Source: Thiotrichales bacterium (lineage in GTDB: Bacteria > Pseudomonadota > Gammaproteobacteria > Francisellales > CACEW01). Taken from it: a stretch of DNA of 64,000 bases. This document shows, in pieces, positions 5,172 through 52,038 of this stretch. The number at the start of each line of letters is the position of its first letter. Position 1 is the first letter of the stretch. Made by a program: the position numbers and the translations under genes. The stretch is from positions 4,761 to 68,760 of the forward strand of contig CANJUQ010000008.1 in NCBI GenBank assembly GCA_947478175.1, given 5' to 3'. Below the pieces are notes generated by a model. The model did not search any database. It was not told where the DNA came from and was given only the letters and a program-made list of their open reading frames with translations.

Positions 5172-5280
5172 GGAATATCCGCTTAATTAAAGTTGAGTAA
5201 AACTAGAAGCGGCGGATTATCTAATGTTTAAACTTTAGAACCAACTCTTTTATTGAAACTAAATTTTTTGATTTTTTTGA

Positions 5281-5313
5281 TTGAATAATATGTCTATTAG
5301 ACATATTATTCAA
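5281..5313. promoter_or_regulatory. perfect 14-bp inverted repeat, probable higBA operator
   Basis: TTGAATAATATGTC-tatta-GACATATTATTCAA, 40 nt upstream of the higB ATG. Confidence 0.5.
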
Positions 5314-5352
5314 TCTGTCTTTGATACTAATACCCTCAGGGGTTTTAAATTC

Positions 5353-5661
5353 ATGCGAATAGTTTCCAAGAAAAGATTACGTGATTATTGGGTTAATAAT
5401 GCACAAGCAGAACTTCCTTTAATCGAGTGGTACTACAAAATGAAAGCTTCTACATCACGCAATTTAACAGAGCTACGCCAATGTTTTAATAGCACTGATG
5501 CTGTTCACGAATACACCGTGTTTAACATTGGTGGAAATAAGTTTCGTTTAATTACAGCCATTCATTACAAAACTGGCTGTTGTTTTATTCGGACAATTTG
5601 GACACACGCGGAATACAGCAAAAAATCTAATCAAGAAAAACTAAAAAGAGGTGAGCTATGA
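5353..5661 (+). CDS. higB: type II toxin HigB (RelE superfamily mRNA interferase)
   Basis: MRIVSKKRLRDYW...TVFNIGGNKFRLITAIHYKTGCCFIRTIWTHAEY parallels E. coli HigB (YVFNVGGNELRVV...CYIREVMTHKEY). The start is taken at the internal ATG. It has an ATGA overlap with the next gene. Confidence 0.85.
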   Translation: MRIVSKKRLRDYWVNNAQAELPLIEWYYKMKASTSRNLTELRQCFNSTDAVHEYTVFNIGGNKFRLITAIHYKTGCCFIRTIWTHAEYSKKSNQEKLKRGEL

Positions 5662-6104
5662 ATGCATTAGCAATTGATTATTCCAACAGCAAAAACAATC
5701 ACTCCATGCATCTTCCTATTACTGTGTTTAAAAAACCCACCAACTCCAAAGAGTATGCCAAGCTTCAAAAAGTCCTGGATTCACTTATTGACGAAGTCCG
5801 AGGGGATGAGAAACATCCTTTAGCATTGGTCATGCAAATTATTGGTGAAAACCTGGAGCAATATGATGACGAACATCACCCACCCATAGGATCGGGTATT
5901 AGCGATGTTGATTTGATTAAACATCTGATGACCTCCTCAGGACTACGCCAAAAAGATTTGACTGATATTTTTGGGAGCCAAGGTAATGTTTCTAAATTTC
6001 TTAATGGCCAACGCCCCCTCAGTAAGAAACAAATATTGGGGCTAAAAAATTTCTTTAAGATTAGCGCCGACTTTTTTGTGGATAGTTTCAGCTTAACTGC
6101 CTGA
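5658..6104 (+). CDS. higA: HigA-type HTH antitoxin
   Basis: Translationally coupled to higB. It has a C-terminal HTH-like segment (QKDLTDIFGSQGNVSKFLNGQRPLSKKQ). Confidence 0.75.
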   Translation: MNALAIDYSNSKNNHSMHLPITVFKKPTNSKEYAKLQKVLDSLIDEVRGDEKHPLALVMQIIGENLEQYDDEHHPPIGSGISDVDLIKHLMTSSGLRQKDLTDIFGSQGNVSKFLNGQRPLSKKQILGLKNFFKISADFFVDSFSLTA

Positions 6105-6400
6105 TTTTTTCGCTAGTTCTGCAAATTCTTCTACCAAATGGGTTTTACTGACTTGGCGTGCCCCACGGATAATCAATGGCTTTCGGTCACGAGAAACAGA
6201 CCATTTTTGAAGAAATTCCAGGAGCTTTCTTTTCATATTCAATCCAGATTTGGCCAAAACAGCCGTCTATTTCAACCATTAATTGGCTAAAAATAGGACA
6301 CTATGCACGCCGAATACAAAATTCGCCCACACCCTTCCATTCATGGATAATCCCGCCTTTTTTAATCGCTCTTTTAAATAAATTTTTGGAAAGATTCCCC

Positions 6401-9139
6401 ATGACTGACATAACTAATAAGCCCTTAATCTTGATCGACGGATCGTCTTATCTATTTCGCGCTTTCTATGCTCTGCCTAATTTAACCAACGCTACAGGCC
6501 AGCCCACGGGCGCTATTTTGGGCGTGATTAATATGCTCAAAAGTTTATTAACCCAATATGACCCCGAATACATCGCCGTTGTATTTGATACCAAGGGCCC
6601 TAATTTCAGACATCGGCTTTATCCAGACTACAAAGCCAATAGATCCGCAATGCCTGAAGATCTTGCAAGTCAGATAGAACCTATTTTTGAATTTATCGAT
6701 GCCCTAGGTTTGGTTTTAATTAAACAAATGGGTATTGAGGCTGATGATCTCATCGCGACTTTGGCTCATACCGATTTTGCTGAGCATCATGAAATCTTGA
6801 TAGCCACGGGCGATAAAGATTTAGCCCAGCTGGTTAATTCAAAAATATCTTTGATAGACACCATGAAAAACGTCCGACTAGATATCCCTGGCGTCAAAGA
6901 AAAATTCGGCGTCACACCCGAGCAAATCATTGATTACTTAGCCTTGATGGGCGACACCTCCGATAATATTCCTGGTATTCCCGGCGTAGGACCCAAGACA
7001 GCCATCAAATGGATTTCAGAATATTCATCTTTAGATTTGATTATTCAGAACGCGGACAAGATCTCCGGCAAAGTCGGTGAGAATCTCAGAGCTAATCTTT
7101 CCCAGCTAGAACTCGCAAGAAAACTAGTGACCGTCGATTCTCATGTACCTCTAGAATTTGCTGGGGAAAATTTTACCTGGGAAAAATTGCTTAAAAGACC
7201 TGAAGATCAAAATAAATTAGTGACCCTGTGTGAAAAATATGGGTTTAAAACCTGGTTAAAAAATTTAGGGCATGAACCCGGGCGAACACAAGGTTCGCCC
7301 CTACAGGACAATATTCCGGCAAATAATTCAGGCCTCTATGAAACCATTTTGACGCTGGACCAATGGAACCATTGGCAAGAAAAAATTAGCCAATCTACAG
7401 CTCTAGCGATTGATACGGAGACCACCGGACTAGATCCCTTAGAAGATCGCCTCGTCGGCGTATCTTTTTGTGTAGAACCTCACAAAGCTGCCTATTTACC
7501 CCTAGGTCATGATTTACTCGAAGCACCTGACCAACTTTCCATAGATCAAATTCTCCCAGGCTTAAAAAAAATATGCGAAAACCCAAAGCTAGAAAAAATT
7601 GGGCACCATTTAAAATTTGACTGGCAAGTGCTAGCCCAACACGGGATTATTTTTCAGGACCCTTTATTTGATAGCCTGTTAGCGTCCTATGTTTTAGAAG
7701 CTGGCCAAACAAGACATAACTTAGAAACTCTGGCCTTACGCCATCTCAACTTAAAAACAATTTCTTATGAAAGCATCACTGGCAAAGGCGTCAAACAGTT
7801 AACTTTCAATCAAGTCCCCCTAGATCAAGCGACCCAATATTCTGCTGAAGATGCCGATATTACTTTTCAGCTCTATCAAAAATTTAAAAAAACTTTGCAT
7901 GAAAATCCCACGCTCGAAAAATTATTTCGCGAAGAAGAACTTCCTATGCTCAAAGTTTTGGCCCGTATGGAATTACATGGGGTTTTATTAGATGTCCCAG
8001 CTTTACAAAAACAATCTCAAGCACTGGGAAAAACTATTTTAGAAATCGAAAACAATGTCCAAGCTCAACTGGGCATGCATTTTAATCTCAGCTCACCCAA
8101 ACAATTACAGACGGTCTTATTTGAAAAACTTCAGCTTAAACCCGTCAAAAAAACAGCAACAGGTCAGGCATCGACTGACGAAGAAGTTTTGCAAATCTTG
8201 GCTGAGCAACATGAGATTCCAAAATTATTATTAGAACATCGTCATCTTTCTAAACTCAAGACAACTTATACAGATAAGCTCCCACTCATGGTCAACCCCA
8301 AAACCAACCGGGTTCACACGCGATATCATCAAGCCTTCGTTGTCACAGGAAGATTGTCTTCGTCGGATCCCAACTTACAAAATATCCCTATTAAATCCCC
8401 ACAAGGCCGTCAAATTCGCCAAGCGTTTATTGCCCCACCGGGCTCTGTGATTTTGTCTGCAGATTATTCTCAAATAGAACTGCGCATCATGGCCCATTTG
8501 TCTCAAGACCTCAGACTGATTCAAGCCTTTAAAAATGGTGAAGATATTCATCAAGCCACCGCAGCTGAAGTCTTTGGCGTGGAAAATCCCTCTGATGTCA
8601 CTTCTGAACAAAGACGCCGCGCTAAAGCCGTTAATTTTGGATTGATCTATGGCATGAGTGCCTTTGGCTTAGCTAAGCAATTAGGCATCGAAAGATCTCT
8701 CGCTCAACATTACATTGAAACTTATTTTGCAAGATACCCAGGGGTAAAAAAATACATGGAAGAAACCCGAGAACAAGCAAAATCTTTGGGCTATGTCGAA
8801 ACGATTTGGGGCAGAAGATTAGCCTTGCCAGACATCCATTCTAAAAACGCTGTCATGCGACAAGGGGCTGAACGAGCCGCTATCAATGCCCCCATGCAAG
8901 GCTCAGCGGCTGATATTATTAAACGCGCCATGATTCAAATAGATCAAGTCATTGAGACCCAAAAACTTCCCATGGCCATGACATTACAAGTGCACGATGA
9001 ATTAGTTTTTGAGGTTCAAGAACAATCGATTCAACCCATGACCGCATTAATTCGCCACCTTATGACATCGTCCTCATTACTCTCCGTTCCACTCGAAATC
9101 AGTATCAATACGGGGGCCCATTGGGATGAAGCTCATTAA
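6401..9139 (+). CDS. polA: DNA polymerase I
   Basis: Contains a 5' nuclease domain (LILIDGSSYLFRAFYA), a 3'-5' exonuclease domain (DTETTGLD) and polymerase motifs (DYSQIELR, QVHDEL). Start chosen at ATG 6401. The track ORF begins at 6176. Confidence 0.95.
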   Translation: MTDITNKPLILIDGSSYLFRAFYALPNLTNATGQPTGAILGVINMLKSLLTQYDPEYIAVVFDTKGPNFRHRLYPDYKANRSAMPEDLASQIEPIFEFIDALGLVLIKQMGIEADDLIATLAHTDFAEHHEILIATGDKDLAQLVNSKISLIDTMKNVRLDIPGVKEKFGVTPEQIIDYLALMGDTSDNIPGIPGVGPKTAIKWISEYSSLDLIIQNADKISGKVGENLRANLSQLELARKLVTVDSHVPLEFAGENFTWEKLLKRPEDQNKLVTLCEKYGFKTWLKNLGHEPGRTQGSPLQDNIPANNSGLYETILTLDQWNHWQEKISQSTALAIDTETTGLDPLEDRLVGVSFCVEPHKAAYLPLGHDLLEAPDQLSIDQILPGLKKICENPKLEKIGHHLKFDWQVLAQHGIIFQDPLFDSLLASYVLEAGQTRHNLETLALRHLNLKTISYESITGKGVKQLTFNQVPLDQATQYSAEDADITFQLYQKFKKTLHENPTLEKLFREEELPMLKVLARMELHGVLLDVPALQKQSQALGKTILEIENNVQAQLGMHFNLSSPKQLQTVLFEKLQLKPVKKTATGQASTDEEVLQILAEQHEIPKLLLEHRHLSKLKTTYTDKLPLMVNPKTNRVHTRYHQAFVVTGRLSSSDPNLQNIPIKSPQGRQIRQAFIAPPGSVILSADYSQIELRIMAHLSQDLRLIQAFKNGEDIHQATAAEVFGVENPSDVTSEQRRRAKAVNFGLIYGMSAFGLAKQLGIERSLAQHYIETYFARYPGVKKYMEETREQAKSLGYVETIWGRRLALPDIHSKNAVMRQGAERAAINAPMQGSAADIIKRAMIQIDQVIETQKLPMAMTLQVHDELVFEVQEQSIQPMTALIRHLMTSSSLLSVPLEISINTGAHWDEAH
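7280..7307 (+). repeat. REP-like hairpin (family A) inside polA
   Basis: GGGCGAAC-acaag-GTTCGCCC-CTACAGG. Translated in frame as GRTQGSPLQ. Confidence 0.75.
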
Positions 9140-14573: not shown

Positions 14574-15746
14574 CTACATAGCATCGACGGCATTACAAAG
14601 GAGGCTCACAGCCTCCTTTTTTGCAAGTGCCTTCGCCTTCTGACCCATGCTGTCTAATAGTTTTCTATCGTTAGATAAATCTTGAATCACTTGGGCTAAT
14701 TTCTCAGCGGTTAAATCTTTCTGAATTAAACAAATACCTGCACCTTGTTCTGATAACCATTCGGCATTCATACGCTGATGATCATCGACGACATTAGGAT
14801 GAGGAATAAAAATTGCTGGCAATCCAACCGCTGCGACTTCAGAGACGGTCAACGCTCCAGACCTGCAAATAATCAAATCTGCCCACTGATACTCCTGAAC
14901 AATTTCAGAAAAATAGGGGACCACTTGGATTTCATGTCCTGAATTATTTTTCATAAAATTTTTATAATTTTCTTGGGCTATTTCTAAAGTCTTAGGACCC
15001 GCTTGATGATGAATATTCATGGGATTTTTTATTTTCGAAAGGGCTTCGGGAATCAAAGTATTAAAAATCAAAGAGCCTTGACTGCCACCGGTGATTAAAA
15101 TTTTTAAAGGACCCTCACGCTTCCCCCCTCTCTGCCCCTCAACGCATACGCGTTTCGGGTCTGTCTCTCCCGCGAGGGGAGAGACGAAATCCATTCCATC
15201 TACAAATTTTGAACGAACAATTTCCAAAATATCCGCTCTAATCGGATTCCCAATCACTTCACTTTTAAAATGATTAATAGGAAACGCTGAAAATATTCTT
15301 GCCGCCATCTTGGCCAAATAAAAATTCGTCATGCCCAAGATCGCATTTTGCTCATGAATAAATAAAGGAACCCCCAATGATTTCGCCGCCAATCCCGCCG
15401 GCCCGCTGGCAAAGCCTCCAAAAGAAATAACTAGATCTGCTTTTTTATTTTTTAAAATTTTTCGAGCCTGTAATACGGCTCTCATTAATTTAAACGGTAA
15501 TTGGATCCAGCCCAGTAAGCTCTTGTTTCTGACCCCAGCAATTTTTAAAAAATCACTTTCTATTCCAATTCCAGCCTCAGGCACTAATTTTTTTTCTAAC
15601 CCCACTTCACTGCCAATCCAGCTAATTAAATAACCCCGCTGAATTAATTCTTTTGCGATGGCTAACCCTGGGTAAATATGTCCGCCCGTTCCTCCGGCCG
15701 TTATTACAATATTTTTAATATTTTTTAATTTTCTAATTTTGCTCAC
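14574..15746 (-). CDS. murG: UDP-N-acetylglucosamine--lipid I N-acetylglucosamine transferase
   Basis: Has GGTGGHIYPG and GGSQG motifs. At 390 aa it is longer than usual because of an in-frame repeat insertion. Confidence 0.93.
   Translation of the reverse strand: MSKIRKLKNIKNIVITAGGTGGHIYPGLAIAKELIQRGYLISWIGSEVGLEKKLVPEAGIGIESDFLKIAGVRNKSLLGWIQLPFKLMRAVLQARKILKNKKADLVISFGGFASGPAGLAAKSLGVPLFIHEQNAILGMTNFYLAKMAARIFSAFPINHFKSEVIGNPIRADILEIVRSKFVDGMDFVSPLAGETDPKRVCVEGQRGGKREGPLKILITGGSQGSLIFNTLIPEALSKIKNPMNIHHQAGPKTLEIAQENYKNFMKNNSGHEIQVVPYFSEIVQEYQWADLIICRSGALTVSEVAAVGLPAIFIPHPNVVDDHQRMNAEWLSEQGAGICLIQKDLTAEKLAQVIQDLSNDRKLLDSMGQKAKALAKKEAVSLLCNAVDAM
14600..14622 (+). terminator. rho-independent terminator for the 14100-14564 gene, embedded in the murG 3' coding end
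   Basis: GGAGGCT-cac-AGCCTCC followed by T6. Confidence 0.55.
15131..15197 (+). repeat. 67-bp GC-rich element (family B) inside murG
   Basis: TTCCCCCCTCTCTGCCCCTC...GTCTCTCCCGCGAGGGGAGAGACGA. It has the same length and the same termini as the copy at 38851-38917. Confidence 0.75.
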
Positions 15747-16896: not shown

Positions 16897-16923
16897 GGGC
16901 AGCCCGCTGGCTGCCCCTACAGA
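16897..16923 (+). repeat. REP-like hairpin (family A) overlapping the hemF stop codon
   Basis: GGGCAGCC-cgct-GGCTGCCC-CTACAG. The hemF stop TAG is the complement of CTA at 16917-16919. Confidence 0.75.
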
Positions 16924-17840
16924 CGCCATTCTCTTGGCTTCAAAAATTTTTCGTATAACTCGGCTTCAGGACTGCCAATCTCTGGATGCCAGTTATATTT
17001 AAAACTCACCTCAGGCGGCAGGGACATCAAAATAGATTCTGTCCGTCCTCCCGATTGCAAGCCAAACAAAGTCCCCCGATCGTAAATCAAATTAAATTCG
17101 ACATAGCGACCTCGGCGATATCTCTGAAAATTAATTTCTCGATCGCCATAAGACCTATCTTTTCGACGAGCCACAATTTTTTCATAAGCCTGGATATATC
17201 CTGCCGTAATGCTCTGGAGCATTTCTAAACTTTTGTCTAATGGCAGCTGATTAAAATCATCAAAAAATAAACCGCCAATCCCACGGGGTTCTTTGCGATG
17301 TTTTAAATAAAAATACTCATCGCAGTCTTTTTTAAATTTTGGATATAACTCTTCTCCAAAAGATCTCACCGATTCATAAGCGATCTGGTGCCAGTCTCGA
17401 CAATCTTCTTCAAAGCCATAATACGGCGTTAAATCAAATCCACCGCCCACCCAGCCGACAGGTTTCTCGCCTGGTTTCTCTGCTTGGAAATATCGAATAT
17501 TAAAATGCGACGTTGGGACATACGGATTTTTAGGATGAATCACGACAGAAACTCCCATCGCCTGAAACGATCTTCCCACTAATTCAGGCCGATGTGCGGT
17601 TGCACTGGGTGGCAAAGCATTTCCAAAGACATGTGAAAAATTGACACCGGCTTGATCAAACACAGGGCCTTTTTTTAAAACACAAGTTCGACCACCACCG
17701 CCTTCAGATCGAGTCCATTCGTCTAGTTCAAATTTTTGTCCGTCTGCCTGATCTGCTTGATCTGCCTGACGCTCAACCATGGTGATAATATTTTTTTGGA
17801 CGGTTAATAAAATATTTTTAATAGCACTTAAATCTTGCAT
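16917..17840 (-). CDS. hemF: oxygen-dependent coproporphyrinogen-III oxidase
   Basis: [11 protein letters not shown]...GVNFSHV...[11 protein letters not shown]...[10 protein letters not shown] are HemF motifs. Start at ATG 17840, preceded by GGGAGA. Confidence 0.92.
17744..17770. repeat. 9-bp tandem repeat x3 in hemF (CTGCCTGAT CTGCTTGAT CTGCCTGAC)
   Basis: Read directly. Encodes QADQADQAD. Confidence 0.8.
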
Positions 17841-17864
17841 GCCTAATCTCCCTTTATCGATCAA

Positions 17865-17892
17865 GGGCGGACACGCGGGTCCGCCCCTACAA
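17865..17892 (+). repeat. REP-like hairpin (family A) in the ftsY-hemF spacer
   Basis: GGGCGGAC-acgcgg-GTCCGCCC-CTACAA. Confidence 0.8.
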
Positions 17893-23491: not shown

Positions 23492-23511
23492 TTTTTTGAT
23501 CAAAAAAATAA

Positions 23512-23538
23512 GGGCGAATACAAGATTCGCCCCTACAA
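23512..23538 (+). repeat. REP-like hairpin (family A)
   Basis: GGGCGAAT-acaag-ATTCGCCC-CTACAA, in the convergent spacer before minE. Confidence 0.75.
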
Positions 23539-32159: not shown

Positions 32160-32345
32160 CACCTGCCGCCTGCGGGGTTCGATTGTTGAGATGATCTCGA
32201 GCTAATACTTTAAAACCTCGGGGTTCAGCCAAGTTTCAGGAGTGCATGCCAGCTTTAAGCCGGAAGCCCGAAGAAACTTTTAGAATCCCACCTAGTCCTC
32301 CCAGTTCGAGGATACGAAACATAGGCCTGGCGGGCGGCACTTCTT
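32160..32345 (+). ncRNA. ssrS: 6S RNA
   Basis: About 185-nt non-coding stretch immediately upstream of the 5-formyl-THF cyclo-ligase gene, which is the conserved ssrS-ygfA synteny. The 5' UGCCGCCUGC can pair with the 3' GCGGGCGGCA. The internal GAGUGCAUGC...GAAGCC and the 3' GGCGGCAC resemble E. coli 6S RNA. A possible promoter is TTGACT (32129) with TAGCTT (32152). The ends are approximate. Confidence 0.7.
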
Positions 32346-33789: not shown

Positions 33790-35913
33790 TTACAATACTG
33801 ATGGGTACACACCTGAAGCTGATACTGGGCTAACTGGTGCTGGTACTGGTGTTGAACTTCTTCTGTCTGGAGGAATGCCTAAGCCTTCTTCGATGTTCGT
33901 TCCATCTTGAAGTTCGAAATACTCATCACCTGATGGCGTGCGGAATGTAGTGCTGCCAGAGAGCACTCCCGATGCTGCACGGTGTTGCTCTTGAGGTACA
34001 ACGCCTACACCGCCGTATTGGCCTCCGTTTCCGAAAGATTGGAGTCTATGCCGACGATTGAAACATGCGGCTATTCTCGTACAAGGCTTAGATTCTTGCG
34101 GAAGATCAGTGCTTTGATAATTAGCTCGGAACCAAAGTGCTAAACACAAACTTCCTGCAACGGCATTTCCAACAATACCCCCTATCGCGACGCCATAAGG
34201 ACTGTGCATTACCTTGACGCCCAGCTCATAAGAAAGAAGGAGTCCGACCAGCCCCATTCCAAACAGGCTGGCGAACATGGGATTAAGGGTTACTTTAGTT
34301 AACCCCTGATACGCACTCGCCGCCCCGTAACGAAGACCATCGAAGACCTGTCCTACAACCACTAAACTCATAATGGGCAGCAACCAATCATGAACAAAAG
34401 GACTGCTCAAGGCTTCAGCGCCTAAAAATAATTGAGCCACTGGGTTAGCAATAAAAGGCGTGATGCCACACCAAGCAACTGCCCAGATCAACGAAAGCAT
34501 CATGCTGATGTTCCCCAGACGATACGCAGCAGAAAAATCTTTAGCCCCTACCATAGTTCCTATTAATTGAACCCCGGCATTCCCAAAACTCTGCGTCACG
34601 GTAAAAACCAAATTACTCACTGTACTCACAGCACTTGCGACTGTGACAGCGTCTTTGTTAATCCAACTATAAAAACCGGTACCAAAAAAAGCAGAAGACC
34701 ATTCAACGCCTAAGCGTCCAATCAAAGGAAGGCCTGTGCATAAAAACTCTTTCATCATGGAACCTGGAGGGAGTTTGTAACTTAAATCTTCCCGCTCCTT
34801 GGAAATTAAAAATTGACGAAGCTCATCAACCTCTGAAGAGGACAACATCAGTGTTTTAAAATCAGCGATGGGGAGTACGTTATTCCCTTCTTGTACGTCA
34901 ACATGAATGCTACTCACTCCCATGTTCACTGGATTCACTGGGCTCTCTGAGTCCACTTCCTGCTCCATTATCTCGGAAAAAATGCTTTTTAGGCTCTTTG
35001 TTTTTAAATCCTGTTGTGATTCCCTCAGAAAGTCCTGCAAGGCCGAAAAATCCCTTGATTCAAATTTTGAAAATGGGAATTTTAAAAATTCACTCCTTAA
35101 TTTACGACTTTTAGCGTCTTCAAGTTTAAATCGAAAAAGACCTGAGAGTTTTATTTCCCCAACATTTAAGTCCTTCCCAGAGACTTTTAAAACGGGTGGG
35201 GTTTTCTTAAATGCAATAAGCAGACTAAAAGCAATCGCGTTAAACCAAATACGAACTGCCCCTGCAATCGCTAACCCTTCAAGGCCTAGCTCAGGGAGGC
35301 CCATTTTGCCCATGCTCAAACCATAACTAAAAAACCACACCAAAGGCACGCTGCTAAGATTAAGCGCCGTCACCCAACCCCTTTGGTTAAACAAATTCAA
35401 ATAAGGCCGAACTACTGCCCCATAAGCAAAAGCAGGCACACTGACAAGGTACCAACGCAAAAATTTTTGAGTCATTGAAGTAATGAGCTTATTTTCATGA
35501 AAAATATTTTCCAGGGCAAATCCTGAAAAATAAAAAGCTGCCACGGTGATGGCAGCAGAAACAAAGGCGTAATAAAGTCCTTGCCGCCCCATACGAAAAA
35601 CGGCCTCTCGGGCCGTTTTCTTATCTTTTTCTGCTTGGGCCGCATGGATGGCCCCTAGCTTCTCGCCCATCAGGCCGTATAAGGCATTCATCGGCGCTGA
35701 CAAAGCAGTCTGCGATAACTTATAAGTCATCACCCACTGATTGGCCGTTAACTCGTCCGGTCCCAAATGAGCCATATAGATCTGAGTTATTATGTCAGTC
35801 GCTGTTGACGCCAACATGCCCGCTACAATAGGCATTGCAGTCTTGATAACTCCACAGGTTTCCCCCCATCTGGAACTTTGTAAAACGGTTTGAGTAACGC
35901 TAGCCCCTGACAT
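33790..35913 (-). CDS. MATE/MOP-superfamily-like polytopic membrane protein with central insertion and C-terminal tail (paralog 1)
   Basis: 12-TM layout. The N-terminal pattern IKTAMPIVAGMLASTATDIITQIYMAHLGPDELTANQ resembles MATE transporters. AGGAGA lies before the ATG. Confidence 0.68.
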   Translation of the reverse strand: MSGASVTQTVLQSSRWGETCGVIKTAMPIVAGMLASTATDIITQIYMAHLGPDELTANQWVMTYKLSQTALSAPMNALYGLMGEKLGAIHAAQAEKDKKTAREAVFRMGRQGLYYAFVSAAITVAAFYFSGFALENIFHENKLITSMTQKFLRWYLVSVPAFAYGAVVRPYLNLFNQRGWVTALNLSSVPLVWFFSYGLSMGKMGLPELGLEGLAIAGAVRIWFNAIAFSLLIAFKKTPPVLKVSGKDLNVGEIKLSGLFRFKLEDAKSRKLRSEFLKFPFSKFESRDFSALQDFLRESQQDLKTKSLKSIFSEIMEQEVDSESPVNPVNMGVSSIHVDVQEGNNVLPIADFKTLMLSSSEVDELRQFLISKEREDLSYKLPPGSMMKEFLCTGLPLIGRLGVEWSSAFFGTGFYSWINKDAVTVASAVSTVSNLVFTVTQSFGNAGVQLIGTMVGAKDFSAAYRLGNISMMLSLIWAVAWCGITPFIANPVAQLFLGAEALSSPFVHDWLLPIMSLVVVGQVFDGLRYGAASAYQGLTKVTLNPMFASLFGMGLVGLLLSYELGVKVMHSPYGVAIGGIVGNAVAGSLCLALWFRANYQSTDLPQESKPCTRIAACFNRRHRLQSFGNGGQYGGVGVVPQEQHRAASGVLSGSTTFRTPSGDEYFELQDGTNIEEGLGIPPDRRSSTPVPAPVSPVSASGVYPSVL

Positions 35914-38836: not shown

Positions 38837-38850
38837 TTTATTTTTCCTAT

Positions 38851-38917
38851 TTCCCCCCTCTCTGTCCCTACAGGCTAGGGCCTTTCGGGCCTGTCTCTCC
38901 CGCAGGGGGAGAGACGA
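38851..38917 (+). repeat. 67-bp GC-rich element (family B), intergenic copy
   Basis: TTCCCCCCTCTCTGTCCCTA...GTCTCTCCCGCAGGGGGAGAGACGA. The termini are identical to the murG copy and the central ~13 nt differ. Confidence 0.75.
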
Positions 38918-42466: not shown

Positions 42467-42890
42467 AATGGCACTGACTTAAGGTCGGCAAGGCTTATCT
42501 TGCTTGAATTCCCCTCTCCAATATTGGAGAGGGCAAGCCACTGAAAGTGGCGCGGGAGAGGGATTTAAAAAACATCCCACTATTGCAAGTTCAGATAAAT
42601 AGCTTCAAGAACAGCTGCTTTTTCTTTAAATACTTCATGATTACGTCATGATTTCAAAATCTAATGACGTGAAATCCCAAAGACTCTAAATGCTTTGTTC
42701 GATTTGAATCTCTTTTGGCATGTGATTCTTCCAGATGTTGACTGCCATCGAGTTCGATAATCAGATATTTTTAATGTGTTATTTATTTTTAAATCCCTCT
42801 CCCGCGCCACTTTCAGTGGCTTGCCCTCTCCAATATTGGAGAGGGGAATTCAAGCAAGATAAGCCTTACCGACCTTAAGTCAGTGCCATT
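42467..42890. mobile_element. foldback / MITE-like element with 105-bp terminal inverted repeats
   Basis: 42467-42571 is the reverse complement of 42786-42890 with a single mismatch. The arms carry nested hairpins (CCCTCTCC-aatatt-GGAGAGGG and GCCAC-tgaaa-GTGGC). Confidence 0.65.
42579..42770 (-). pseudogene. DUF559 (Vsr-like endonuclease) C-terminal remnant
   Basis: The reverse frame reads KYLIIELDGSQHLEESHAKRDSNRTKHLESLGFHVIRF then TGA then NHDVIMKYLKKK. A 1-nt shift restores AAVLEAIYLNLQ. The N-terminal half is missing. Confidence 0.6.
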
Positions 42891-49104: not shown

Positions 49105-52038
49105 ATGACTATTGCTGACTATCTCTCTGCCCTTCGCCATTCTAATTTCTCTGGCGAAATTCGAACGGATTTCTCGACTCGACTGGCTTTATCGACTGAC
49201 AACAGTATTTATCAAAGAATTCCTGAAGCCGTTTTATTTCCCAAGACTCATCAAGATATTGTCGAAATTTTTAAACTGGCCGGAAAACCAGAATTTAAAA
49301 AAATCAGATTTTCTCCCCGAGCTGGCGGCACTGGGACTGACGGTCAATCTTTAACGTCAGATATTTTGATCGACTGTTCGAAATATTTGCGAGAAATCTT
49401 AGAAATCAATCTCGAAGCCGGTTATGCCCGAGTCCAAGCAGGCGTGGTCTTAGATCAATTAAATAATATCCTTAAACCCCATGGCGTATTTTTTGCCCCT
49501 CAAGTTTCACCGTCTAACAGAGCTTGCATTGGCGGGATGTTTAATACGGATGGATGCGGCCTAGGGTCTGCTAAATATGGCCGAACGAGTGAGCATGTTT
49601 TAGGGGTCACCGCCGTTTTGATTAATGGCGAAGTTTTAAATACTCAAGCCAGAACTTTGCCTTTATCTAATCACCAAAATCTCTCGCCCACAGAATTAAA
49701 TCTCAGTGAGAAAATTTTAACCTGGCTCTCTGAGCATCAAAATTTAATTCAAGAAAAAGCCCTCAAAATGCCCAGATTTCTCACGGGCTACAACTTATTG
49801 CACCCACTTCAAAATAATCAATTAGACCTCACAAGATTGCTTTCAGGTTCTGAAGGGACATTGGCCATGATCACAGAACTGACGGTCAAACTTACTCCCT
49901 TGCCTAAACATAAAGCTTTACTAGTTATTAAATATTTAGATTTTGATCGGGCTTTAAGACATGGCGCTTCACTGTTAATTCACCAACCCGAAGCGACAGA
50001 AACCATTGATGACAAGATTATTAATCTCGCCCGAAAAGACGAAGTTTTTCTGAAAGTAAAACCCATGTTTGAATATGACGGCCCGGATGAAACCACGCAG
50101 GCGATTAATTTAATTGAATTCACTCATGAGCATCCCCAGGCTTTGTTAGACAAAATTCAAGAAATTAAAACTCTTTTAGCTCAAGACACTCAAATCAATG
50201 GGATTTTTATAACTCAAGACCCCAAAGAAATTTCAGCTTGGTGGGAACTTCGTAAAAAAAGCGTGGGCCTTTTAGCTAATTTACCTGGCAAACGTCAGCC
50301 CGTTCCCTTTGTCGAAGATACGGCCGTCGATCCTTCTGTGTTGCCAGAATTTATTCGGGATTTTCGAGCTGTCTTAGATCAGGACAATTTGGTCTATGGC
50401 ATGTTTGGGCACATAGATACTGGCTGTATTCATGTCAGACCGGCGTTAGATATGACCGATCCTGACGATGCTAAAAAAGTTAAAATTATTTCAGACAAAA
50501 TTCAAAAACTCGTTAAACACTATGGCGGCTTACTTTGGGCTGAACACGGTGCTGGATTTCGTAGTCATTATATTCCTGAATACTTTGGGCCAGAGCTCAC
50601 TCAGCTCATGGTAAAAATCAAAACATTATTTGATCCAGAGAACCAACTCAACCCAGGCAAAATTATTTCGTCAGATCCCAGTATTCCTATTGTCAGACCC
50701 GGCGAAGAATTAAGAGCAACACGAGAATCTCAAGTACCCAGTGATGTAAGACATCAATTTGAGAAAGCCTTCAAGTGCAATGGCAATGCCATCTGTATGA
50801 ACGTCATGCCAGACATCGCGATTTGCCCGTCTTATAAAATCACACGAGATCGAGTGCATTCACCCAAAGGTCGGGCTGTTTTAATGCGAGAATATCTCCG
50901 ACAAGAATCATTAGGTGAAATAGATTTATCTTTTGCTGAAGAAGTTAAAAAATCCATGGATGGTTGTTTAGGCTGTAAATCTTGTGTTTCTGGCTGTCCT
51001 GTCAATGTCGATGTACCGAGTTTTAAAAGTGAATTTTATGCACGGTATTACCGATCTAAACTCAGGTCTTTACGAGATATTTTGACGGCGAATTTTGAGC
51101 GATTGACGCAGATCAAGGCATGGTTTGTAAACATTGGTGGTAGGTGCTTATCGAGGGCGGACACGCAGGTCCGCCCCTACAGGAAAAATCAAAAAATTAG
51201 GTTCGCTACAAGAATAACTGGCCTCGTCGATCTCCCGAAAATTTCTAAAAATCTTTCGCTTTTAAAACAAATCCCCAAAGCCAATTCTAAAAATATTTCC
51301 CAGGCCCAAAAACCTATTTTATTAATGGGCGATGTTCTGACCCGCTTTCATCATCCTGAATTATTACTCGACGCTGCCAAGTTAATAAAAAAACTAGGCT
51401 ACACGCCCCTACTATTACCATTTATTCAAAACGGAAAATCTTTTCACGCCCTGGGATATCTTAAAAAATTCGAATATTTAGCTAAAAAAAATCAGCAATT
51501 TTTAAAAAAATATTTTGATCAAAATATTCCCATCTTGGGCATCGAACCGGCTTTGACGCTCGCTTTTCGAGATGAATATAAAAATATTTTAGAAAAAAAT
51601 AATAATAAAATAGGGTTTTCAGTCCAATTGATTTCGGAATGGTTAGAAAAACTGGATCTTTCTGGTTTAAAGGGCGGACACGCAGGTCCGCCCCTACGAA
51701 TGCCCTCAAAGTCTTATGCTTTTATTTCCCACTGTTCTGAAAAATCCCTCGTGCCCTACTCTGCAAAACACTGGCAAAAAATATTCACACAAATGGGATT
51801 AGATTTGATTTTGCTCGAAGCAGGTTGCTGTGGCATGGCGGGTGTCTATGGCCATCAGATAGAACATCAAGAAAACTCTAAAAATCTCTATGAACTTTCC
51901 TGGGAAACTCATGTCAAAAATTATGGGGAAAACTTACTAGCCACGGGCCATTCCTGTCGATCTCAAATAAAAAGATTGGGGGGGGGAAATATCAAACACC
52001 CTCTATCTGTTTTGACGTCTTATTGGCTTAATGATTAA
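49105..52038 (+). CDS. FAD-linked oxidase fused to Fe-S/CCG-domain oxidoreductase (YdiJ-like)
   Basis: 977 aa with an N-terminal FAD-binding PCMH-type domain (GGTGTDGQS). The middle region has the 4Fe-4S motif CLGCKSCVSGCP and the C-terminus has Cys-rich CCG-type repeats. Confidence 0.82.
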   Translation: MTIADYLSALRHSNFSGEIRTDFSTRLALSTDNSIYQRIPEAVLFPKTHQDIVEIFKLAGKPEFKKIRFSPRAGGTGTDGQSLTSDILIDCSKYLREILEINLEAGYARVQAGVVLDQLNNILKPHGVFFAPQVSPSNRACIGGMFNTDGCGLGSAKYGRTSEHVLGVTAVLINGEVLNTQARTLPLSNHQNLSPTELNLSEKILTWLSEHQNLIQEKALKMPRFLTGYNLLHPLQNNQLDLTRLLSGSEGTLAMITELTVKLTPLPKHKALLVIKYLDFDRALRHGASLLIHQPEATETIDDKIINLARKDEVFLKVKPMFEYDGPDETTQAINLIEFTHEHPQALLDKIQEIKTLLAQDTQINGIFITQDPKEISAWWELRKKSVGLLANLPGKRQPVPFVEDTAVDPSVLPEFIRDFRAVLDQDNLVYGMFGHIDTGCIHVRPALDMTDPDDAKKVKIISDKIQKLVKHYGGLLWAEHGAGFRSHYIPEYFGPELTQLMVKIKTLFDPENQLNPGKIISSDPSIPIVRPGEELRATRESQVPSDVRHQFEKAFKCNGNAICMNVMPDIAICPSYKITRDRVHSPKGRAVLMREYLRQESLGEIDLSFAEEVKKSMDGCLGCKSCVSGCPVNVDVPSFKSEFYARYYRSKLRSLRDILTANFERLTQIKAWFVNIGGRCLSRADTQVRPYRKNQKIRFATRITGLVDLPKISKNLSLLKQIPKANSKNISQAQKPILLMGDVLTRFHHPELLLDAAKLIKKLGYTPLLLPFIQNGKSFHALGYLKKFEYLAKKNQQFLKKYFDQNIPILGIEPALTLAFRDEYKNILEKNNNKIGFSVQLISEWLEKLDLSGLKGGHAGPPLRMPSKSYAFISHCSEKSLVPYSAKHWQKIFTQMGLDLILLEAGCCGMAGVYGHQIEHQENSKNLYELSWETHVKNYGENLLATGHSCRSQIKRLGGGNIKHPLSVLTSYWLND
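51155..51183 (+). repeat. REP-like hairpin (family A) inside the YdiJ-like gene
   Basis: GGGCGGAC-acgcag-GTCCGCCC-CTACAGG. Translated as RADTQVRPYR. Confidence 0.8.
51672..51700 (+). repeat. REP-like hairpin (family A) inside the YdiJ-like gene
   Basis: The same 26-mer as at 51155. Translated in another frame as GGHAGPPLR. Confidence 0.8.

Follow-up and report, generated by a model that had tools for sequence, protein, structure and literature searches.

Why does the gene for DNA polymerase I (polA) of an uncultured gammaproteobacterium contain a perfect GC-rich palindrome, and what are the residues that it encodes? The palindrome lies in a 64,000-nt stretch of the Thiotrichales bacterium assembly GCA_947478175.1 (contig CANJUQ010000008.1, positions 4,761 to 68,760 of the forward strand); the whole of this stretch is hereafter called the window, and positions are counted from its first letter unless another locus is named. 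Judged by its sequence, the palindrome is a repetitive extragenic palindromic (REP) element of the GTAG type. REPs are short, non-autonomous hairpin elements spread by REP-associated tyrosine transposases (RAYTs; HUH/Y1 enzymes), which act on single-stranded DNA (ssDNA). A copy of such an element has very probably been inserted into the disordered linker region of polA, where it is translated in frame as a neutral or near-neutral passenger.

On the plus strand, positions 7280-7304 read GGGCGAAC-acaag-GTTCGCCC-CTAC (the whole element being GGGCGAACACAAGGTTCGCCCCTAC), in which a perfect 8-bp stem (8/8 pairs) encloses a loop of 5 nt and is followed by a CTAC tail. The minus strand of the same element reads GTAG followed by GGGCGAAC-cttgt-GTTCGCCC. 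An earlier note on this DNA, prepared from the sequence alone, had given the coordinates as 7280-7307; the start stands, while the end is corrected to 7304, as 7307 takes in a further AGG. Folded as ssDNA, the hairpin had an energy of -9.8 kcal/mol (z = -3.7); out of 200 shuffled sequences, not one folded equally well. The minimum-energy structure of the polA mRNA contains the hairpin too. The G+C content of the element is 64%, compared with 37-44% for the window. The codons across it (GGG CGA ACA CAA GGT TCG CCC CTA) specify GRTQGSPL, corresponding to residues G294-L301 of the 912-aa PolA in the context ...LGHEPGRTQGSPLQDNIP..., and the element additionally covers the first base of Q302. The tryptic peptides predicted around it are NLGHEPGR and TQGSPLQDNIPANNSGLYETILTLDQWNHWQEK. 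In-frame translation, claimed previously, was confirmed by a single unbroken open reading frame (ORF), and the peptide had been named correctly. The plus strand, carrying CTAC, is free of stop codons in all three frames and the GTAG strand is closed in one frame only; therefore, the element can be read through in five of the six frames.

The longest ORF containing polA runs uninterrupted from 6176 to 9139 on the plus strand, with homology to PolA beginning at M76 (position 6401). All homologues use a start that lies 75 codons further downstream than those of this ORF and of the database protein P0001 (987 aa), and the N-terminal extension encoded at 6176-6400 is probably not real. All residues that are invariant in 21 PolA homologues are kept in the protein encoded in the window. 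The AlphaFold model of PolA had a mean predicted local distance difference test (pLDDT) score of 86, with values below 50 only at residues 1-4 and 291-310. Residues 291-310 show no secondary structure in the model and enclose the REP-encoded residues 294-301; on either side lie the last helix of the 5′-nuclease domain (residues 283-288) and the 3′-5′ exonuclease domain, which begins at about residue 314. The position between the 5′ nuclease and 3′-5′ exonuclease domains assigned in the earlier note thus holds, residues 294-301 falling in the sole internal disordered segment of the protein. The accompanying suggestion that the insertion is tolerated rather than functional gains support from the disordered position, and nothing points to a function.

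As the source is a metagenome-assembled genome and repeats can misassemble, the element might be an artefact of assembly or binning, or polA might be a decaying pseudogene in which a repeat is of no consequence. We give this explanation hardly any credence. An identical 987-aa product is encoded by five contigs from independent assemblies and is therefore not a one-off assembly error. The uninterrupted ORF, the retention of all invariant residues, and the confidence of the structural model also argue against it, as does the adjacency of polA and priA, which is found in relatives too.

A scan of the window for perfect hairpins yielded six with a CCCCTAC tail on the plus strand, all in the same orientation, compared with about zero expected (Table 1). 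The tail motif TTCGCCCCTAC, with at most one mismatch allowed, was matched six times against 0.71 expected; five of these matches are hairpin copies and the remaining one, at 34541, is not. The stems of the copies differ by compensatory changes (GAAC/GTTC, GAAT/ATTC, and GGAC/GTCC), and three sister copies have 6-nt loops. These six copies bear out the proposal that the polA palindrome belongs to a dispersed hairpin family. A scan against Rfam assigned no family to the REP hairpins, its only match in the window being 6S RNA, and a tRNA scan gave nothing at the hairpins.

The GTAG of the copy with the variant stem, at 16917-16920, is the source of the TAG stop codon of hemF (coproporphyrinogen oxidase, 16917..17864, minus strand). 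Another, at 23508-23536 on the minus strand and followed by TTATTTTTTT (a T-run), forms the strongest terminator-like site between 6000 and 24500, just downstream of minE, and transcription of the gene or genes ending with minE may terminate at this copy (23512-23536).

Could the palindrome be a chance feature of a native linker, with no repeat insertion at all? Linkers drift freely, and the 22 aa of this one are ordinary next to a median of 25. However, the hairpin pattern, allowing up to two mismatches, was found twice in the window against an expectation of 0.01, and five other sites of the family are present. The contrast in base composition with the window and the failure of any shuffled sequence to fold as well also speak against chance, and the exact 25-mer occurs in many phyla among the matches listed from other genomes (see below). 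A chance origin is effectively refuted by family membership, and we regard it as scarcely believable.

Other genomes were scanned, one genome per species, with the pattern GTAGGGGCGRAY-n5-6-RTYCGCCC. At least 120 loci with at least 146 matches were obtained from many phyla; those among the matches listed included Bacillota, Bacteroidota, Acidobacteriota, Desulfobacterota, Chloroflexota, cyanobacteria, and Coxiellaceae, as well as others. Several of the matches listed were the exact polA 25-mer, and some of the matches listed formed close inverted pairs. Both variable stem positions were complementary in 139 of the 146 listed matches; therefore, the hairpin itself is what is conserved. About 13% of the 146 listed matches were intragenic by an ORF-spanning heuristic, a rough figure, given how often GC-rich DNA contains long spurious ORFs.

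As defined in PMC6006769, a REP has GTAG or GTGG on the 5′ side of its stem, at a distance of 0-2 nt; the stem is fully paired over 7-20 nt and the loop measures 2-5 nt. On its minus strand, the polA element has GTAG immediately before the stem, all 8 bp of which are paired, and a loop of 5 nt. The base of the stem consists of three G-C pairs (GGG...CCC), which is the form expected of REPs of TnpA-REP subclass 2.4. With respect to location, the copies at 17865 and 23512 are extragenic, as the name of the class demands, whereas the polA copy and two others are intragenic. As published REP families have intragenic members, an intragenic site does not exclude REP membership. Two other classes were considered and rejected. 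The element is not a Rickettsia palindromic element (RPE), having the tag GTAG instead of CGTC and a length of 25 nt, and resembles RPEs in behaviour only. Miniature inverted-repeat transposable elements (MITEs) have terminal inverted repeats around 70-300 bp and generate target-site duplications; the polA element is 25 nt long and consists entirely of the hairpin, and no duplicated flank was found in any of the six copies, so that this class was rejected as well.

In six of the 120 matched loci listed, the hairpin lay inside a RAYT-like ORF (Table 1). These ORFs generated a hit on Y1_Tnp in Pfam (E = 6e-7) and scored 60 bits against REP_Tyr_transpos in NCBIfam, under the model cut-off of 80; their family, which JGI names RayT, counts at least 5520 proteins. 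The DNA sequences and a protein alignment placed an inverted pair of in-frame REPs after the HUH motif and before the helix that follows it. The pair is translated into the peptides VGADLRVCP and GEHxGSPLH, near-invariant over at least 5520 homologues and separated by a stretch that is variable in length and partly tandem; the near-invariance of the two peptides may merit a closer look. The REP pair within RAYT genes was not accepted as new, as in-frame internal REPs between the HUH and Tyr motifs are a published hallmark of TnpA-REP subclass 2.4 (PMC6006769).

The genome to which the window belongs tolerates further in-frame repeat insertions, both in a ydiJ-like gene and in murG. The two REP copies in the ydiJ-like gene are read in the two element frames that are not used in polA. 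When the product was aligned with its orthologues using MAFFT, the segment containing RADTQVRPY was opposed by a gap in 15 of 16 orthologues, over 11 gap columns. Near the second REP site, the YdiJ homologue P0126 contains LDSRLRGNDE, a peptide that looks like a translated copy of another widespread hairpin repeat. The insertion in murG (14574..15746, minus strand) belongs to a second repeat family, family B, with a unit of ~67 nt (..CCCCCCTCTCTGCCCC..TTTCGGGYCTGTCTCTCCC-n5-GGGAGAGACGA) that is present at 15121-15187 and 38850-38917. The copy at 15121-15187 falls within the murG inter-domain linker, where it is in frame and read as VSPLAGETDPKRVCVEGQRGGKR. Family B may be a REP of the CGTC type.

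The PolA linker was then compared among relatives. The nearest PolA relatives, obtained from a protein search over 5.8 billion sequences, were 68%, 66%, and 60% identical. In the polA genes of the two closest (L122 and L124, 68% and 66% identity), another perfect hairpin, GTCTCTCCC-n5-GGGAGAGAC, sits deeper in the linker by a few residues. This hairpin is family B, read as VSPPAGET and VSPTGGET, and ~63 nt of the element are kept in L124. Both repeat families recur elsewhere on the L122 contig, with family-B copies inside two other called genes; therefore, the lineage shares the repeats but placed them independently. The linker of a Crenothrix polA (L125) contains a 'double-foot' GTAG...CTAC REP, GTAGAGACGCGATTAATCGCGTCTCTAC. 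In an alignment check of the kind proposed in the earlier note, which expected a gap in PolA orthologues at the element, relatives at 57-61% identity had linkers ~8 aa shorter at this point. The gap is suggestive but weak evidence on its own, as the linkers of 84 polA genes ranged in length between 12 and 71 aa. The linker sequence was not alignable among PolA relatives. As linker length is so variable, the case for insertion rests mainly on membership of the repeat family and on the different repeats in the linkers of relatives.

Perfect GC-rich hairpins were surveyed in 82 other polA genes (80 from a metagenome scan and the two nearest relatives). The linker, which makes up 3.0% of the residues, contained nine of the 30 hairpins (binomial p = 1.6e-7), though in high-GC genes some of these linker palindromes may have arisen by chance where the sequence is rich in Ala/Pro. 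This raises the possibility that the polA linker is a preferred landing site for hairpin repeats and not just a permissive one: the hairpin might be targeted to the linker, or selected there through effects on PolA activity or fidelity (the 'mutator' idea) or on expression, or serve as an RNA or DNA pause or regulatory signal between the two domains. The ~10-fold enrichment, the occurrence of three repeat families in the linker across four lineages, the stem that is still perfect in the window copy, and the over-representation of replication and repair genes among REP-tagged genes (PMC3733652) are all in keeping with this possibility. If it were true, biology, not tolerance, would account for the recurrent and independent insertion of GTAG REPs, CGTC-like repeats, and double-foot REPs. 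However, tolerance alone predicts the same enrichment, the linker being the sole disordered internal segment, and chance palindromes may be among the linker hairpins, as mentioned above. Moreover, the linker repeats have no sequence relationship to one another and differ in both position and encoded peptide, and the same genome has insertions in ydiJ and murG, genes that are unrelated to DNA repair. Finally, there is no U-tract 3′ of the hairpin, and hence it is not a terminator. We consider a functional role at, or a preference for, the polA linker unlikely. The linker data favour tolerance in a disordered linker over the 'mutator' reading of the literature, without settling the matter.

The location of the hairpin exactly between the 5′-nuclease and Klenow-like parts of polA could also suggest an internal terminator or attenuator that allows separate expression of the 5′-nuclease part, the more so with the intergenic copy after minE being terminator-like. 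On the sense strand, however, the sequence after the stem is CUACAGGAC, which lacks a U-run, and no stop codon or restart signal is present. The terminator scan gave nothing on the plus strand at the polA copy and only a weak alternative stem on the minus strand. The polA copy was rejected as an intrinsic terminator, there being no T-run on either strand, and internal termination or attenuation of polA is accordingly very unlikely.

The reading of the element as an inserted REP passenger has several points against it. No empty-site allele was found, the search of 5.8 billion sequences having returned either the identical protein or proteins of at most 68% identity. The 22-aa linker is of ordinary length among the 84 polA genes. 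The 25-nt unit is not a multiple of three. Neither a motif scan nor a phmmer search queried with three RAYT-like ORFs turned up a RAYT gene in the 64-kb window, and the link to a RAYT is indirect, through the RAYT-like genes of six other genomes that contain the hairpin. The orientation of the copies is a further point. Replication-coupled single-strand transposition predicts a strand bias, and in all six window copies the GTAG strand lies on the G-rich strand; over 83 other loci, though, the bias was not significant (48 vs 34, p = 0.15), and the orientation is not counted as evidence here.

With these points taken into account, insertion and in-frame translation of a REP still appear to be by far the best explanation. 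A REP mobilised as ssDNA by a RAYT would have inserted into the polA linker, and selection would have retained a frame-preserving allele of this essential gene, possibly one with small flanking indels. The eight added residues (GRTQGSPL) would then be passengers in a disordered tether, with no role in polymerase function. RAYT-driven mobilisation in the source genome, the way in which the frame was kept, and the neutrality of the insertion are the three parts of this scheme that we infer.

Table 1. Positions of the polA element, its host gene, related repeats, and RAYT-like genes. REP, repetitive extragenic palindromic element; strand of a REP is that of its GTAG.
Feature	Sequence	Coordinates	Strand	Remarks
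polA (DNA polymerase I)	window	6401..9139	+	912 aa from start common to homologues; all domains, no frame break
Disordered inter-domain linker of PolA	window	7271..7330	+	residues 291-310, pLDDT < 50; holds REP-encoded residues
GTAG-type REP element (assigned by sequence)	window	7280..7304	-	25 nt; in frame in polA on plus strand
REP copy, variant stem	window	16897..16920	-	GTAG + GGGCAGCC-agcg-GGCTGCCC; overlaps hemF end
REP copy, intergenic, hemF/ftsY	window	17865..17890	-	GTAG + GGGCGGAC-ccgcgt-GTCCGCCC
REP copy, intergenic	window	23512..23536	-	GGGCGAAT..ATTCGCCC; compared with polA copy, compensatory stem change and same loop
YdiJ-like D-2-hydroxyglutarate dehydrogenase (FAD/Fe-S) gene	window	49105..52038	+	977 aa; hosts two REP copies
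REP copy in frame in YdiJ-like gene	window	51155..51180	-	peptide RADTQVRPY
Second REP copy in frame in YdiJ-like gene	window	51672..51697	-	peptide GGHAGPPL; variable loop
Hairpin in polA linker of relative	L122	10901-10923		
Hairpin in polA linker of relative	L124	2890-2912		
Hairpin in polA linker of relative	L125	3869-3896		
RAYT-like gene with internal REP pair	L008	3366-3962		
RAYT-like gene with internal REP pair	L026	233-925		
RAYT-like gene with internal REP pair	L063	1889-2647		
RAYT-like gene with internal REP pair	L088	1575-2123		
RAYT-like gene with internal REP pair	L114	2400-3056		
RAYT-like gene with internal REP pair	L043	6870-7322		

Other features were observed in the window. 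A HigB-like toxin gene followed by a 148-aa ORF, a possible antitoxin, occupies 5281..6104, and a perfect 18-nt inverted repeat over the start of the toxin gene (5279-5315) may be an operator. Two near-identical palindromes (CCCTCTCCAATATTGGAGAGGG) at 42512-42533 and 42824-42845, ~290 bp apart in a region without an ORF of at least 100 aa, may delimit a small element. At 32164-32340, the plus strand carries a gene for 6S RNA (Rfam RF00013, 82.5 bits).

The polA REP is real, was read correctly, and is of an already known kind that is not confined to Rickettsia. It provides a clean and well-documented case of selfish hairpin DNA that an uncultured gammaproteobacterium translates within an essential gene for replication and repair. 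What it adds is modest, namely that different repeat families have hit the polA linker recurrently and independently, this segment of ~3% of the protein holding ~30% of the hairpins. In practical terms, GRTQGSPL, RADTQVRPY, and VSPLAGET in predicted proteins are to be recognised as repeat-encoded, and differences in linker length in PolA alignments should not be over-read.

Among known systems, the REPs and bacterial interspersed mosaic elements (BIMEs) of E. coli, together with their TnpA-REP (RayT), share with the window family the combination of GTAG and a palindrome, a high copy number, and positions at the 3′ ends of genes (17865 and 23512 in the window). The E. coli REPs are imperfect palindromes, and the Y1 HUH transposase acts on the single-stranded hairpin. 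Unlike the window copies, they have longer, bulged stems (subclass 2.2) and are essentially extragenic; their sequence has only GTAG in common with the polA element. The element also resembles the REPs of TnpA-REP subclass 2.4, or RAYT group 4, which have the canonical base of three G-C pairs and are scattered over many phyla (PMC6006769). The in-frame REPs within the transposase gene that mark this subclass were reproduced here in six loci and in alignment A4, while the 8-bp stem of the polA element is at the short end of the 'long' REPs described there.

The comparison with RPEs, on which the earlier note drew, concerns behaviour. In the account of Ogata et al. (2000) given in PMC3733652, RPE-1 is ~100-150 bp, and RPE-4 and RPE-6 fall in the CGTC super-family. 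As far as that account goes, RPEs resemble the polA element in being palindromic repeats in frame in working genes, often in surface loops or linkers, and thus translated passenger DNA; they differ in that the polA element is unrelated in sequence, has GTAG instead of CGTC, and occurs in a different bacterial class. The statement in the earlier note that such insertions are rare outside Rickettsia is outdated, as many intragenic GTAG and CGTC REPs, polA included, have been reported (PMC3733652). A literature search for REP-encoded peptides found no papers.

A close precedent is the catalogue of intragenic GTAG and CGTC REPs by Di Nocera, De Gregorio and Rocco (2013; BMC Genomics 14:522, PMC3733652), in which the REP-tagged genes include DNA polymerase I, uvrA, dnaE2, and recBCD. 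Tolerance of intragenic REPs in linkers and loops was proposed there and repeated by Quentin et al. (2018; PMC6006769). The stem sequence of the polA element was not found in the text of the catalogue, which has 24 GTAG families. The polA element is nevertheless like its intragenic GTAG REPs in having GTAG at the foot of a short GC-rich hairpin, in being a single unit read in frame inside a gene for a known protein (7-9 residues there, eight here), and in having DNA polymerase I as host. GTAG termini give TAG stop codons to neighbouring ORFs in that study, as at hemF here. The organism, an uncultured gammaproteobacterium, is new. The supplement of the same study lists a CGTC-3 REP dimer in the DNA polymerase I of Rhodopseudomonas palustris (RPE_4821, residues 338-367 of 1012). 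As in the window, a REP is read in frame within PolA, and by position alone it probably lies in the same inter-domain linker; unlike the window copy, which is a single GTAG unit encoding 8 aa, it is a dimer of the CGTC super-family that encodes 30 aa.

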